Origin: an uncultured virus (IMG/VR IMGVR_UViG_3300025466_000001)
Taxonomy: Duplodnaviria; Heunggongvirae; Uroviricota; Caudoviricetes
Direction: 5' to 3' (one strand)
Virus record (IMG/VR): IMGVR_UViG_3300025466_000001
DNA length: 20,000 nt
This document shows positions 143-10,838 of the stretch, piece by piece. Made by a program: the position numbers and the translations under genes. The notes below the pieces were generated by a model that saw only the letters and a program-made list of their open reading frames with translations, was not told the DNA's origin and ran no database searches. Each line of letters begins with the position of its first letter. The first letter of the stretch is position 1.

Positions 143-562
143 TTACTTGGCGATCTTTGTCAAAAATGCTTTGCGTTGTGCAACTGTGAGAGCTTTGAAT
201 TGTGTAAGTAACTTAGCAACTGGGTCAGGCTTCTTGGCTGCCTTTGGTTTCGTGGAGGTTTTCTCCACTTGGCTTGGCATATAGTATTTGAGCATAGCCC
301 TTGCACATTCACTCGCATCTGTACCACCATTCTTTTTAGACTCAAAGCCTAGCGAGCCTGTGTAAGAACCTTTGGTAATCTCAATCGTGGCTACCTTCTT
401 CTTGATACTGATGAGCCTTGCTATGTTGCTCCGTACTTCTAGCTGTGCCTCGACCTTCATAGCGTTAAATACAGGTGCAAACTTCTGCATGGCATCACCG
501 AGATTAAAACCTGATTCAATGTGTTGCTCTACTGCATTGAGATAGTTAGTAACTTGTTTCAT
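143..562 (-). CDS. hypothetical early-region protein, 139 aa, Lys-rich C-terminus
   Basis: ORF track; RBS AAGGAG-CAATACC-ATG nearly identical to that of the gene at 74; no recognisable domain. Confidence 0.75.
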   Translation of the reverse strand: MKQVTNYLNAVEQHIESGFNLGDAMQKFAPVFNAMKVEAQLEVRSNIARLISIKKKVATIEITKGSYTGSLGFESKKNGGTDASECARAMLKYYMPSQVEKTSTKPKAAKKPDPVAKLLTQFKALTVAQRKAFLTKIAK

Positions 563-624
563 GGTATTGCTCCTTCGTTTGTGTAGTTAATTAAGTATGT
601 GCCGTTACTACCAAGCACAACTCT

Positions 625-655
625 ATTATACCATATGGCTACTATCCGTAGTAGC
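625..655 (-). promoter_or_regulatory. leftward extended -10 promoter with a palindromic operator-like site over the -35 region
   Basis: Minus strand reads TGG-TATAAT (plus ATTATA 625-630). Perfect inverted repeat GCTACTA-tccg-TAGTAGC at 638-655. Confidence 0.6.
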
Positions 656-673
656 TTTGAGCCATTCCTTTGA

Positions 674-696
674 CCCCACCCATCCCCCATCCCCCC
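674..696 (-). other. potential G-quadruplex-forming tract
   Basis: Minus strand GGGGGG-AT-GGGGG-AT-GGG-T-GGGG: four G-runs of 3 or more with 1-2 nt loops. Confidence 0.55.
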
Positions 697-862
697 AAGT
701 TTCGACCATGCCCCGCTCGGCACTAGATCATTGTTTCGCAGGCGCAAACCAAAAAATGTCAAAATTTTGTAAAAAAATCCAAGGGTCTATGTCAAATCTT
801 AGACAAAAACATTATAAAAATTCTTAGCAAATTTCGGACAAGACCTCCCAGAAAAAACGCTG

Positions 863-875
863 TAACCTTATGATT
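863..875 (-). promoter_or_regulatory. IHF-like binding site
   Basis: Minus AATCATAAGGTTA versus the IHF consensus WATCARNNNNTTR (one mismatch), with an A/T tract on its 5' side. Confidence 0.35.
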
Positions 876-950
876 ACAAAAAATAAAGCCGTGCAAACAT
901 ATGACATGAGGTAAAAGTTATGTAAAAAGGATAAACCTACATAAGATTGT

Positions 951-1250
951 TATAAAAAAGTTTCCCAGTAGTGCCTATAGGTATCAAAACAACAAAACAA
1001 TTCCAACCTATAGGTATAAAAAAGTTTCCCGAACGGGAAGAATTGATAAAAAAGTGTGCAAAAGTAAAAAAATATTCCCGAACGGGAAAGTTTGTAAGAA
1101 AAAGTAATGACTCATAAATGAGTCCATATAGGGGTTAAAGCTTTATTTATGAGTCAACCAAAGAGCGCATAAACTCAACGACGTATACAAAATGTCAACA
1201 AATCTGCGCATATCCCCCAAACATGTCTACAAAACTGCAATTACTATACA
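951..1250. repeat. array of duplicated palindromic/operator-like motifs separated by A-tracts
   Basis: TATAAAAAAGTTTCCC x2 (951-966, 1015-1030); CCTATAGGTAT x2 (974-984, 1007-1017); TTCCCGAACGGGAA x2 (1026-1039, 1075-1088); GACTCATAAATGAGTC (1109-1124) plus a 12-bp inverted repeat 1108-1119/1145-1156; ATGTCWACAAA x2 (1192-1202, 1223-1233). Confidence 0.8.
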
Positions 1251-1275
1251 TACCAAAAACTGTCTAGTAACAATG

Positions 1276-1304
1276 TTGCACTGCACCATAAAACAAATTA
1301 AAAT
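1276..1304 (+). promoter_or_regulatory. sigma70 promoter with an overlapping PhaR-type box
   Basis: TTGCAC (1276-1281)-N17-TAAAAT (1299-1304). TGCACTGCACCA (1277-1288) fits the PhaR consensus TGCRNYGCASMA as recalled for Bradyrhizobium. Confidence 0.65.
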
Positions 1305-1352
1305 GGACCCAAAGGCTCCATAAGGGAACCGCACTAACCTAAAGGAAATAAA

Positions 1353-1487
1353 ATGAACGAACTATTCAAAGAGTGGGACAAAGCGTATCAACAAGTACAG
1401 AACGTACTAGAGGCGGTAAAGCAAGGGAATGAGTTTTGGTTAAACCACTACATCTCTTCTGTTAAAGAACTTTTCAAAACCAAATAA
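1353..1487 (+). CDS. 44-aa amphipathic helical microprotein, possibly phasin-like (MNELFKEWDKAYQQVQNVLEAVKQGNEFWLNHYISSVKELFKTK)
   Basis: AAAGGA RBS upstream of ATG 1353, TAA at 1485-1487, promoter upstream and hairpin downstream; hydrophobic residues in an i/i+3/i+4/i+7 pattern. Below the ORF-track size cutoff. Confidence 0.7.
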   Translation: MNELFKEWDKAYQQVQNVLEAVKQGNEFWLNHYISSVKELFKTK

Positions 1488-1520
1488 AAAAAAACCCCCG
1501 GGCGTTTTAAGTCCGGGGGC
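1486..1520 (-). terminator. intrinsic terminator on the minus strand; the hairpin may also end the convergent plus transcript
   Basis: Plus A9-CCCCCGGGC-gttttaa-GTCCGGGGG, which reads as a GC stem followed by U9 on the minus strand. Confidence 0.7.
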
Positions 1521-1571
1521 ACAACTCACGTAACCGATGGCACAACGAAAGGAGAAGTAAAACCACCGGTA
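1486..1571 (-). ncRNA. candidate ~85-nt sRNA with an anti-SD loop
   Basis: Bounded by a minus-strand promoter and terminator; stem ACCGGUGGU/GCCAUCGGU encloses a loop containing UUCUCCUUUCG; no RBS-led ORF seen inside. Confidence 0.55.
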
Positions 1572-1577
1572 AGAAGA

Positions 1578-1628
1578 ATTGTAAAGTTTTGGCTGCGGAT
1601 TGTAAAGTTAAGCCCCGATAATTGTAAA
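1578..1628 (-). promoter_or_regulatory. tandem leftward sigma70 promoters built from three ATTGTAAA repeats
   Basis: ATTGTAAA at 1578, 1599 and 1621. Minus TTTACA (1606-1601)-N17-TACAAT (1583-1578) and TTTACA (1628-1623)-N18-TACAAT (1604-1599). Confidence 0.6.
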
Positions 1629-1693: not shown

Positions 1694-2317
1694 TTGATCT
1701 TAGATCATTTAGTTTCAGCTGCAGCCGCTGACTTCGCTCCGGAAACACTACCGGACGGGGATTTGTTCGTCCCTGTAAAAGACCTATCTGTAAAAGAAAC
1801 CATAGATGCGCAGGTAAACACTGCCGACTGGCTCAAATCTATTACCGAAGATGACGACGAGGTACTAGACCGCGCCCAAGAACAACGTGTAGGCGAAGCA
1901 TTCGGTGCGCTAATCACGCAAAGCCCTGATACAAAAGAAAGATTCCTAGAGCTTGAGCTCCCAGAAGAAGTAAAGTCTGCCGTTTCCATGGTGACTGCCT
2001 ATCAATGGAAGTTTGTAGAGCAAGCACAAGAGCTACGAAGCATGAGCGTAGCCAAGATTGTTAAAGAAACCGACCACCCAGATGCAAGAATACGCTTAAA
2101 GGCGTTGGAATTGTTGGGAAAAGTCACAGAAGTTGCCCTGTTTACGGACAGAGTTGAAGTTAAGAAGACTGAACTAAGTGATGAAGAGTTGGAAAAACAA
2201 ATTAAAAAGAAACTTGAGAAGTACATGGGCGTGGTTGAGGTAACTGAGATTAAAGAAGAAGACATTGAGGACGTGGGAATAGTGAAAGTCATCAAAGCTG
2301 AGCCCCGCGACGAATGA
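1694..2317 (+). CDS. putative terminase small subunit
   Basis: Directly upstream of and overlapping terL (ATGA); helical segment RLKALELLGK is typical of TerS-like proteins. Start placed at TTG 1694 (after AAAGGG) because ATG 1637 lies inside the predicted promoter. Confidence 0.6.
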   Translation: MILDHLVSAAAADFAPETLPDGDLFVPVKDLSVKETIDAQVNTADWLKSITEDDDEVLDRAQEQRVGEAFGALITQSPDTKERFLELELPEEVKSAVSMVTAYQWKFVEQAQELRSMSVAKIVKETDHPDARIRLKALELLGKVTEVALFTDRVEVKKTELSDEELEKQIKKKLEKYMGVVEVTEIKEEDIEDVGIVKVIKAEPRDE

Positions 2318-3834
2318 AAACAGAAAGTCTAAGCCCAGAAGAAGCAATGGCTGCCAGAATGGCACTAAAAGATATGACGACTGTGGAAAAAGCGGCTTTC
2401 CTAGAAGAATTAAACGAAAAAGAACGCCGTGCCCAGCTAAAAAAAGCACAAGACGACCCAATTGAGTTTGCCAAGTACGTGTATCCGGGTTTCAAAGTGG
2501 GGCCCCACCACCGCAAGCTAGCTAAAATCTTCGAGGACGTCATTGCGGGGAAGAAAAAGCGCGTAATCATAAACATTGCACCACGTATGGGCAAATCAGA
2601 ATTTTCGTCCTACCTCTTTCCGGCATACTTCCTAGGTAAATACCCTGACAAAAAGATTATTATGGCGACCCACACTGCTGGCTTGTCAGAAGACTTTGGT
2701 CGTAGGGTACGAAACCTAATTGATGGAGAAGATTACCATGAAGTATTTCCCGGAACCGTTGTTGCTGATGATCAAAAAGCCGCTGGTAAGTGGAGTACTG
2801 GTGCCGGCGGCCAGTATTATGCTGTGGGTGTCGGGGGTGCTCTTGCCGGACGAGGCGCTGACCTTTTTGTTATTGACGACCCTCACTCTGAGCAAGATAT
2901 AAAAGCAAACAGCCGAGCCACGTTTGATAATGCGTGGTCTTGGTTTCAGACTGGCCCGTTGCAGCGTTTGATGCCGGGTGGTGCGATTATTGTCATTATG
3001 ACAAGGTGGTCGCTTGTTGATTTGACTGGCCGGTTGGTGAACTTCACCATACAAAATCCCGAAGCAGAACCATGGGAGGTAGTAGAGCTGCCAGCCATCA
3101 TGCCAAACGGGAAAAGTCTGTGGCCTGAGCAGTGGCCTCTAGAACAGTTAGAAGCTAAAAGACTTCAGATGGACCCACGGTACTGGAACGCCCAGTACAT
3201 GCAGAACCCCACCGGGGATACAAGCGCCCTGATAAAACGAAGCGACTGGAAAATCTGGGAACACGAAGACCCACCGACAGTCGAGTACGTCATCCAGTCT
3301 TGGGATACGGCGTTTGAAACAAAAACCACATCTGACTATTCCGCATGCACAACATGGGGGGTTTGGTACAACGAAGAAGATAACAATTCACCCAATCTAA
3401 TTTTGTTAGATGCGTTCAAAGACCGGATGGCGTTCCCAGAATTAAAGGCTGTTGCACTGAAGCATTATCAAGAATGGAAACCAGATGCGTGTATCATTGA
3501 GAAAAAAGCGTCGGGTGGCCCGTTAATACAAGAGCTGCGCAGAATGGGGATTCCGATTCAAGAGTTTACACCTAGCCGTGGCAACGATAAAATAGCTAGA
3601 CTTAATGCGGTTTCTGACTTATTTGCGTCCGGCCGTGTTTGGATACCGGATAGGCGTTGGGCTAAAGACGTTGTGGAAGAAGTAGCAGCATTCCCTGTAG
3701 GCGAGCACGATGACTATGTGGATACGACAACGCAAGCATTACTGCGCTATAGACAGGGCGGATTTGTTAATTTAAATACGGACGAGCAAGACGACTTGAC
3801 GTACAAGTATAGAAGAAGAGCAGCATACTACTAA
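2314..3834 (+). CDS. terL: terminase large subunit
   Basis: Walker A APRMGKS, Walker B LFVIDDP, coupling motif MTRW, RNase H-like nuclease motifs QSWDTA and HDDYVD. Confidence 0.96.
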   Translation: MKTESLSPEEAMAARMALKDMTTVEKAAFLEELNEKERRAQLKKAQDDPIEFAKYVYPGFKVGPHHRKLAKIFEDVIAGKKKRVIINIAPRMGKSEFSSYLFPAYFLGKYPDKKIIMATHTAGLSEDFGRRVRNLIDGEDYHEVFPGTVVADDQKAAGKWSTGAGGQYYAVGVGGALAGRGADLFVIDDPHSEQDIKANSRATFDNAWSWFQTGPLQRLMPGGAIIVIMTRWSLVDLTGRLVNFTIQNPEAEPWEVVELPAIMPNGKSLWPEQWPLEQLEAKRLQMDPRYWNAQYMQNPTGDTSALIKRSDWKIWEHEDPPTVEYVIQSWDTAFETKTTSDYSACTTWGVWYNEEDNNSPNLILLDAFKDRMAFPELKAVALKHYQEWKPDACIIEKKASGGPLIQELRRMGIPIQEFTPSRGNDKIARLNAVSDLFASGRVWIPDRRWAKDVVEEVAAFPVGEHDDYVDTTTQALLRYRQGGFVNLNTDEQDDLTYKYRRRAAYY

Positions 3835-10074: not shown

Positions 10075-10405
10075 CATTGTAGTGGTGTATTCGGTGGCAG
10101 TTAGCGCATAGAACAATGCACTTTTTTATTTCTTCATAGGCTTTTTTAAACTGTCCATTACTAACTAAATTGCTTACTACGTTTTCTTTTTGGGTAGGGT
10201 CTTCGTGGTGAAAATCTAACGCCGCTGGGTGAGAAAAATCGCATTTTGCACATTTAAGTGTGCATTTAAATGTATCCCATTCTTTCTTTAATTCTTTCCT
10301 TCTAATGTTTATTTGCTCTCGACGTTCGGCATATTTGCCTAAATACTGCTTACGGCTGTACTCCGCATGTTTGGCTTTTTTTACGTTCGCGTCTTTGTAC
10401 GGCAT
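10055..10405 (-). CDS. HNH endonuclease with zinc-finger cysteines
   Basis: CAKC..LDFHH.DP..K...EIKKCIVLCANCHRIHH; probable start MPYKD at 10405. Confidence 0.85.
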   Translation of the reverse strand: MPYKDANVKKAKHAEYSRKQYLGKYAERREQINIRRKELKKEWDTFKCTLKCAKCDFSHPAALDFHHEDPTQKENVVSNLVSNGQFKKAYEEIKKCIVLCANCHRIHHYNEKNPAL

Positions 10406-10838
10406 CTGGGTGGACCTTATATTTCCAATAGATTGCGTTGCGAAAGCCCCATGGTTGTCCGGGCTGATAAATTTTGAAACCCGCACTGATTAACGAGTTC
10501 GATGACGCAGGATTTTTTGTTGTATCGGTGATTAACCAATTCCATCCTAACTTCCTAGCTTGTTTGATTCTTGCAGATATTAATCTCTTTTGTAAGCCGT
10601 GTCCAGTAAAGCCATCCATTACACCTGCTCTACATAAGTAACCTGTATCTGTCCATTTGATCGAGCGGACCATACCCGCAAAAGCGACAGGCTTTCCATC
10701 CTCCGCATACGCAATCCACCAATGACCCCTGTCCGGTTGGTACGGCGTATCCGCCGGAAGTATTTTCTTTTGTAGAAAAAGTAGTGTGGTTTGAACTGAC
10801 GGGACTCTGATGTCCACTTTTTTTATTGTAAATTTCAT
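10350..10838 (-). CDS. GNAT-family acetyltransferase
   Basis: Acetyl-CoA-binding motif A (RAGVMDGFTGHGLQKRLI) and motif B (NPASSNSLISAGF). Confidence 0.8.
   Translation of the reverse strand: MKFTIKKVDIRVPSVQTTLLFLQKKILPADTPYQPDRGHWWIAYAEDGKPVAFAGMVRSIKWTDTGYLCRAGVMDGFTGHGLQKRLISARIKQARKLGWNWLITDTTKNPASSNSLISAGFKIYQPGQPWGFRNAIYWKYKVHPDAVQRRERKKSQTCGVQP

Follow-up and report, generated by a model that had tools for sequence, protein, structure and literature searches.

A putative insertable phage cassette with a PhaR-like palindrome and a gene for a predicted single-helix micro-protein

Phages read host regulators that respond to nitrogen, phosphate and DNA damage, and boxes for host regulators are found in phage promoters, such as the NtcA and Pho boxes of cyanophages and the LexA boxes of temperate phages. 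PhaR is a bacterial sensor of the granules in which carbon is stored as polyhydroxybutyrate (PHB), and no description of a phage link to this carbon-store sensor was found in a limited literature search. Here, we analyzed a 20,000-nucleotide (nt) stretch of the uncultured virus IMGVR_UViG_3300025466_000001 (the window, meaning the whole stretch throughout), for which a preliminary description had proposed that a PhaR box controls the promoter of a phasin-like micro-protein of 44 amino acids (aa). As a whole, the locus is best explained as an insertable unit in which a PhaR-type operator precedes a gene for a single-helix protein, a reading that we derive from sequence comparison and hold with roughly even confidence.

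The closest described system is the PhaR/PhbF/AniA-phaP repression circuit, known from Alpha- and Betaproteobacteria that store PHB (B. diazoefficiens, H. seropedicae, and S. meliloti). For B. diazoefficiens PhaR, the footprinted consensus is TGCRNYGCASMA, and the site of phaP4 overlaps the -35 element (PMC6201568). The motif of H. seropedicae PhbF, TG[N]TGC[N]3GCAA, was confirmed by footprinting, and the same paper cites CTGC[N]3GCAG as the form in R. sphaeroides (PMC3206438). In S. meliloti, the PhaR/AniA palindrome WNWD2NYGCRNYGCRNH2WNW gave a shift in electrophoretic mobility shift assays that was lost on mutation, and the sites flank the -35 element or fall between the -10 box and the start (PMC12542648). 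The phage locus resembles this circuit in its YGC-RNY-GCR core with TG-N before it and AT-rich arms, in the placement of the putative operator over the -35 element or spacer or just after the -10 element, and in its target, a small amphipathic helical protein. It differs in that the box belongs to a phage-borne insertion or deletion (indel) of one gene, with a regulator that would be the host's, in that the product has 44 aa and matches no phasin model, and in that every second phage box shows A at the position given as C or G in the Bradyrhizobium consensus.

Two further kinds of phage element are comparable. Like phage morons, the cassette is a small gene unit with its own promoter, placed between conserved blocks and present in some relatives and absent from others; unlike in morons and in the known phage promoters with host-regulator boxes, the regulator implied here is a sensor of PHB granules. 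The lambda oop and P22 sar RNAs are convergent or antisense small phage RNAs. A candidate RNA next to the cassette would likewise be short, run on the minus strand from its own promoter to an intrinsic terminator, and face a plus-strand transcript, whereas it shows no sequence or Rfam relation to known families, lies between the micro-protein and TerS-like genes, and carries an anti-Shine-Dalgarno-like CUCCUU loop.

The micro-protein cassette and its palindrome

The locus lies in a 1.07-kb non-coding gap flanked by a minus-strand gene (143-562) on one side and by the plus-strand TerS-like, large terminase (TerL), and portal genes on the other. The source is best explained as an uncultured podovirus of ~65 kb, with the cassette in its early/late intergenic region. 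We fetched 79 distinct loci around relatives of the TerS-like protein and searched their open reading frames (ORFs) and six-frame translations with an iterated profile, counting presence and absence in the 61 loci that had at least 450 nt of upstream DNA. Members of the micro-protein family, 36-48 aa long, were found in 17 of these 61 loci, always on the TerS strand and directly upstream of the TerS-like gene, and were absent from the other 44. In two relatives without the ORF (L010 and L012; loci are cited by L numbers), blastn aligned window positions 171-820 and 1489-2247 to the adjoining positions 2201-2842 and 2838-3593 of L010, and the 668 nt in between (821-1488) had no counterpart in either. 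From these alignments, the segment is best explained as an insertable, moron-like unit.

The 44-codon ORF of the preliminary description is conserved as a coding gene and is almost certainly real. The exact protein is recorded for 29 contigs, and a search at the protein level added one 44-aa relative with 77% identity. For the substitution analysis, identical copies were dropped (L001, L002, and L004, the same as the window; L009, the same as L008; L032, the same as L031; and L053, the same as L052), and L042/43, in which the profile did not detect the ORF, was also left out. Across the 105 pairs of the 15 distinct sequences kept, the protein was retained while synonymous sites were saturated, with a median proportion of synonymous differences (pS) of 0.84 against a median non-synonymous proportion (pN) of 0.39. 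F28 and K38 never vary in the family, and K23 and W29 hardly do. Searched against 1.84 billion representatives, the profile returned 64 matches at E<=1e-3, of which 62 were 34-100 aa long; the remaining two, long repetitive proteins, are taken to be spurious. The set is best explained, on this sequence evidence, as a new family of phage micro-proteins of 36-48 aa.

AlphaFold2, run with the family alignment, predicted one continuous helix covering residues 2-43 (mean predicted local distance difference test score 84.8). The helix is amphipathic, with a hydrophobic moment of 0.40 (z 4.1 versus shuffles), and z reached at least 2.6 in 10 of 15 members. The micro-protein has a net charge of 0 to +1 and no basic region, and the family matched no entry in Pfam, PHROG, or NCBIfam and no DNA-binding family. 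An ESM Atlas look-up gave no usable match. The idea of a ribbon-helix-helix fold was dropped in view of the single-helix model.

The promoter and the ribosome-binding site (RBS) of the preliminary description are present, with TTGCAC at 1276-1281, TAAAAT at 1299-1304 after a spacing of 17 nt, and the RBS AAAGGA further downstream (Table 1). The -35 element agrees with only three of the six consensus bases, and the promoter was therefore missing from a consensus scan of the window, which itself returned fewer promoter-like sites than shuffled sequence (24 versus 30.4). In 14 of 16 distinct cassettes, a TAnnnT -10 element follows TTGCAN at a distance of exactly 17 nt, relatives have AAGGA or AAGGAG at the position of the RBS, and ORF, RBS, box, and 17-nt-spaced -10 element recur together in 14 of the 16. 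The listed features rise above chance only through this conservation and are weak within the window alone.

The TGC box reported over the -35 element was also found, as the 12-mer TGCACTGCACCA at 1277-1288. According to the upstream alignment, it is the core of a 15-bp palindrome with the family consensus TGTTGCAnTGCAACA, of which the window's copy has one mismatch in the right arm. The 12-mer has one exact copy in the window, and its matches with up to three mismatches are not enriched (27 versus 19.7 expected). The palindrome was then sought in the window and in every locus, with at most three mismatches and with TGC and GCA intact. It occurs upstream of all 16 distinct cassettes, L042/43 included, so that the expected co-occurrence was seen in every homologue with enough upstream DNA; in ~426 kb there were only three other matches, all away from the region upstream of TerS. 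Complete relatives each have a single best site, which lies at the cassette. For this family, public ORF calls often start too far upstream and translate the box itself (e.g., MLHCNK), and the box is encodable in 17 of 29 5'-extended ORF calls, compared with 17 of 5800 shuffles.

The palindrome covers the -35 element and spacer in 14 of the 16 cassettes, lies within the spacer of another promoter in L015, and is downstream of the -10 element in L042/43. Of two members that the palindrome scan added later, L130 has it downstream of a -10 element and L137 over the -35 element. Its right arm (TGCAAC/TGCACC), inside the spacer, is as conserved as the -35 element. Sigma-70 does not read the spacer. 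Since the palindrome is kept while its place relative to the -10 element shifts, and since its right arm lies outside what sigma-70 reads, it is best read as the operator of a repressor, and very probably it is the operator of some regulator. Likenesses to boxes for sigma-54, CRP, NtrC, and LexA were considered and dropped because spacing or half-sites did not fit.

In five relatives, a further conserved stretch of ~110 nt is inserted after the stop codon of the micro-protein gene and before the hairpin that follows. It contains helices nested in one another, GGGCAG...CTTGCCC and GCCGA...TCGGC (RNAalifold gives about -16.8, whichever strand is folded), and has no match in Rfam. Small hairpins also occur at 1026-1039, 1075-1088, and 1109-1124 of the window (TTCCCGAACGGGAA twice and GACTCATAAATGAGTC once). 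An A-run precedes each of them on the plus strand, which makes them terminator-like on the minus strand, and the same hairpin types are found at different positions in the cassettes of relatives.

Table 1 Coordinates of the features discussed in the text (window positions unless a locus is named).
Feature	Position	Strand	Basis
Variable insertion (moron-like) with the micro-protein cassette and several small hairpin repeats	821-1488	.	blastn versus L010, L012
15-bp imperfect palindrome TGTTGCACTGCACCA, candidate PhaR-type operator	1274-1288	.	16 cassettes, motif fits
Sigma-70-type promoter TTGCAC-17 nt-TAAAAT	1276-1304	+	sequence; -10 position kept in relatives
RBS AAAGGA, 6 nt before the ATG at 1353	1341-1346	+	sequence; relatives
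44-aa micro-protein gene	1353-1487	+	ORF, conservation, profile, AlphaFold2
Candidate small RNA, ~83 nt, converging on the ORF	1486-1570	-	conservation, covariation, G-U pairs, RNAalifold
GC-rich hairpin CCCCCGG/CCGGGGG, arms 1495-1501 and 1513-1519	1495-1519	-	sequence, stem variants
Promoter-like site TTTACA-17 nt-TACAAT	1578-1606	-	consensus scan 10/12; relatives
Second promoter-like site TTGTAA-17 nt-TAAAAT before the TerS-like gene, within ATGTGTAATAAAATACACAAA	1622-1660	+	consensus scan 9/12
Extra insert in relatives	L006:2728-2846, L007:2759-2864, L008:600-721, L014:1125-1230, L015:2748-2863
Perfect TGTTGCAnTGCAACA before helical ORFs of 39-40 or 70-81 aa in unrelated low-GC viral contigs	L096, L098, L112, L131, L133, L157, L163, L164
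Contigs with TTGCAAC clusters	L092, L094, L101, L104, L121, L128, L132, L139, L141, L145, L155, L156, L161

Candidate regulators of the palindrome

We compared the 16 phage boxes with the published PhaR motifs, counting a fit on at least one strand. The S. meliloti core YGCRNYGCR fits all 16 boxes, and H. seropedicae TGNTGCN3GCAA fits 15 of them. The consensus used in the preliminary description is indeed the one published for B. diazoefficiens PhaR, and the box of the window fits it exactly (PMC6201568). The placement of the boxes relative to the -35 element, spacer, and -10 element is also comparable with that of the sites described in PMC6201568 and PMC12542648.

As the box travels with a one-gene indel, its regulator should be either the product of that gene or a host protein. 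The modelled product, a neutral single helix of 44 aa, would be a poor reader of a 15-bp palindrome. The N-terminal domain of PhaR, PHB_acc_N, was found in none of five related phage records, and in the complete relative G002 (93 ORFs) no regulator was recognizable among the 57 proteins scanned against Pfam and the 35 scanned against PHROGs. Together with the cassette being an indel, these results point to a host factor. That this factor is a PhaR-family protein seems to us about evenly balanced between true and false; PhaR is the best available reading of the operator and has firmer grounds than the preliminary description could offer, though it draws on motif likeness and context, and we would put our trust in it at the halfway mark. 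Under the PhaR reading, a dimeric or tetrameric host repressor of this family would occupy the palindrome and block RNA polymerase. PHB granules would then titrate PhaR away, allowing the micro-protein to be made, and this product might have its effect on the surface of granules or within the PhaR circuit itself, which is a guess. Actual binding of the micro-protein to polyhydroxyalkanoate (PHA) granules seems unlikely.

The same palindrome was also sought in other viral contigs, where the perfect 15-mer occurs in at least 117 stretches, 80 of which were fetched. The micro-protein family was present in two of the 80. In 23 of the 80, the site was not spanned by an open frame of 75 aa or more, and among these matches listed at least 10 stand before small helical ORFs, of which three encode 39-40 aa and have FW motifs and five encode 70-81 aa; at many of the 23 sites, a TATATA motif abuts the palindrome. 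Two of the five 70-81-aa proteins gave sub-threshold phasin hits (PF09361, E 0.024; TIGR01985, E 0.022; TIGR01841, E 0.021) and the other three gave none. No Pfam domain was found in 88 relatives of these proteins, and their profile retrieved no phasin from the PDB. Homology between the 39-40-aa proteins and the micro-protein family was not supported (hhalign aligned 16 C-terminal columns with a probability of 7.5%). The recurrence of one palindrome before small helical ORFs in unrelated contigs argues for a factor that is shared by the hosts.

A number of observations weigh against PhaR as the regulator and against a role of the product at granules. The core TGC-N3-GCA is short, and two of the published motifs fit half of the boxes or fewer, namely only 8 of 16 for TGCRNYGCASMA of B. 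diazoefficiens and only 1 of 16 for CTGCN3GCAG of R. sphaeroides. In 57 of the 80 fetched stretches, an open frame of at least 75 aa spans the site, and these copies are probably chance occurrences in genes. The claimed phasin likeness of the micro-protein holds for its form, an amphipathic single helix, and fails for homology: no phasin model (Phasin_2 PF09361, Phasin PF05597, TIGR01841, or TIGR01985) was matched when seven family members were run by hmmscan against Pfam (E<=10) and the window protein against NCBIfam (E<=1), and a PDB search with the family profile gave no sequence match and no phasin. An amphipathic helical build is common to many coiled coils, and the phasin likeness of the modelled helix is one of form only. 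No PHA gene was seen among the 57 of 93 ORFs scanned in G002. As for the host, no tRNAs were found, and a TerL scan of genome contigs returned four contigs of metagenome-assembled genomes (MAGs) from four lineages in three phyla, none of the four with the cassette. Labelled Elusimicrobia, Chitinophagales, Patulibacter, and Lysinibacter, the four probably represent phage sequences that were mis-binned. Among isolated phages, there were only chance-level matches for the peptide (tblastn) and the promoter (blastn).

The most serious alternative is that the palindrome is the operator of another dimeric regulator, either a host protein other than PhaR or an unrecognized phage protein, and that the likeness to PhaR sites is coincidental. 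We regard this as a real, though clearly lesser, possibility. The scatter of the four MAG contigs over three phyla designates no single host, most early phage proteins have no family assignment and could hide such a regulator, half of the boxes miss the strict 12-mer, and the 117 or more perfect 15-mers in viral contigs lie, among the matches listed, mostly in apparent coding DNA. However, a phage regulator encoded elsewhere would have to exist both with and without the box, because the box moves with a one-gene indel, and each genome has one best site instead of a set on early promoters. Moreover, the fit to three independently derived PhaR motifs extends to the flanks (TG-N before, A/CA after, and AT-rich arms), and the same palindrome before small helical ORFs in unrelated contigs favours a factor common to the hosts.

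A second alternative dispenses with a regulator altogether and sees in the site a strong phage promoter, with the ORF as the first gene of a late TerS-TerL-portal transcript. The left arm of the palindrome coincides with the -35 element at a 17-nt spacing fixed in 14 of 16 cassettes, and the hairpin after the ORF has no plus-strand T-run, which makes read-through to the TerS-like gene likely. Yet the right arm lies in the spacer, unread by sigma-70, and is conserved like the -35 element; L015, L042/43, and L130 keep the palindrome at other places relative to the -10 element; and the TerS-like gene has its own promoter-like site, while 44 of 61 relatives do without the cassette. We therefore consider a regulator-free promoter improbable. 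Self-repression, in which a coiled-coil dimer of the 44-aa helix would bind the palindrome, agrees with box and gene always occurring and moving as a unit, with the single site per genome, and with a heptad-like hydrophobic stripe that would allow oligomers, but is very improbable for a protein modelled as one helix that lacks a basic region, is neutral or nearly so (net charge 0 to +1), and matches no DNA-binding family, the more so as the perfect palindrome elsewhere precedes unrelated proteins of 70-81 aa and at best weakly similar ones of 39-40 aa (hhalign 7.5%).

PhaR-type control could also be part of something wider. It is conceivable, if doubtful, that unrelated aquatic phage lineages share a small regulon on the PHB-granule sensor of their hosts, in which the same PhaR operator would gate single-helix micro-proteins and short phasin-like proteins; in the present phage group, the cassette would stand beside a novel antisense small RNA guarding entry into the packaging/structural operon. 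The lineages concerned would be the ~65-kb podovirus group and the low-GC contigs with T4-late-like TATATA motifs, and their products might work at the granule surface or on PhaR, sensing and perhaps mobilizing stored carbon. If PhaR does gate the cassette, this would be a simple, testable example of a viral gene whose timing follows the stored carbon of the host, the micro-proteins would form a new family with a likely role at storage granules, and the hosts of this widespread, uncultured group of freshwater phages would be expected among PHB-storing bacteria.

The palindrome scan also caught clusters of TTGCAAC repeats (e.g., TGCAACAAATTGCAACATTTTTGCAAC) in contigs of 31-36% GC (Table 1). 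These look like iterons and are unrelated to the micro-protein cassette.

A candidate convergent small RNA and the surrounding genes

The preliminary description had presented a complete transcription unit closed by a hairpin downstream of the ORF. A hairpin is present just beyond the unit as delimited there. On the plus strand, it is preceded by A9 and followed by CACAACTCAC, with no T-run, and all 35 distinct versions listed have 6-11 A before the stem on this strand and no T-run after it, so that it looks like a terminator of the minus strand. Its stem variants are compensatory (CCCCCGG/CCGGGGG, CCCCCAC/GTGGGGG, and CCCCAG/CTGGGG), with the A-run always on the 5' side of the plus strand. 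The hairpin and the next 70 nt are conserved in 47 rows (the window and 46 loci), many of them loci without the ORF, and form the right flank of the indel. By its orientation and its retention in ORF-less phages, the hairpin is thus not the ORF's own terminator, and the cassette is not a unit closed from promoter to terminator.

The conserved flank may instead encode a convergent small RNA of ~83 nt, a candidate running from ~1570 to ~1488, whose U-tail would overlap the stop codon of the ORF. It would consist of a 5' stem (1563-1570 with 1533-1540) followed by the terminator hairpin and U9, and the loop of the 5' stem carries CUCCUUUCG, in RNA form CUCCUU(U)CGUU, which is anti-Shine-Dalgarno-like. 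In 29 sequences, the 5' stem is 88.4% paired, as opposed to 25-48% in slid controls. Its covariation of 0.639 was attained by 0 of 500 shuffles, which gave 0.236, and six of the eight pairs change on both sides; the sequences are related, and these counts overstate the number of independent events. The strand assignment agrees with the G-U pairs (30 cells on the minus strand versus 6 on the plus strand) and with RNAalifold (-11.1 versus -7.1). A -10 element (TATACT, TATAAT, or TACAAT) stands 7-8 nt before the RNA stem in 32 of 32 distinct sequences. Rfam gave no match at the gathering score for the window and 15 loci. As no plus-strand T-run follows the hairpin, transcripts of the micro-protein gene probably read through into the region antisense to the small RNA and on towards the TerS-like gene. 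Conserved in 46 related loci, the small RNA is in its own right a new candidate for regulating the switch to late genes.

The start of the TerS-like gene may need revision. The listed ATG (1637) falls inside the conserved promoter-like palindrome ATGTGTAATAAAATACACAAA, a motif that in several relatives also makes up the -10 region of their micro-protein promoter, and relatives of the TerS-like protein align only from about residue 10-20. The true start looks to be a TTG in the same frame at 1694, with AAAGGG 6 nt before it. Directly before this AAAGGG RBS lies a small hairpin (1660-1675) that covaries in relatives. Elsewhere in the gap, ATGTCAA/ATGTCTA recurs at 756-776, 789-809, 1192-1212, and 1223-1243. 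Its reverse complement, TTGACAT, is a perfect -35 element on the minus strand, and the motif is kept in most relatives, where it is translated as KKCQIL/KKCQNL in spurious ORFs. These sites may be leftward early promoters.

The window has a GC content of 41-47%, and near and distant searches found no DNA match to it among deposited phages. Besides the large terminase (2314-3834), its products include a protein the size of a portal, a capsid protein, and adaptor proteins of the SU10 type. The terminase shares ~50% identity with its counterparts in Pelagibacter phage HTVC027P, phage DSL-LC04, and others. When capsid proteins are compared, the isolates that come closest are Planktothrix phage Pag-Yong1 and Synechococcus phage MinM2, at 73% identity; they have 67% GC near TerL and do not carry the cassette. 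Finally, a GNAT acetyltransferase gene (10350-10838; Pfam E 1.9e-6) lies within the structural module but on the opposite (minus) strand, and is also present in the complete relative.

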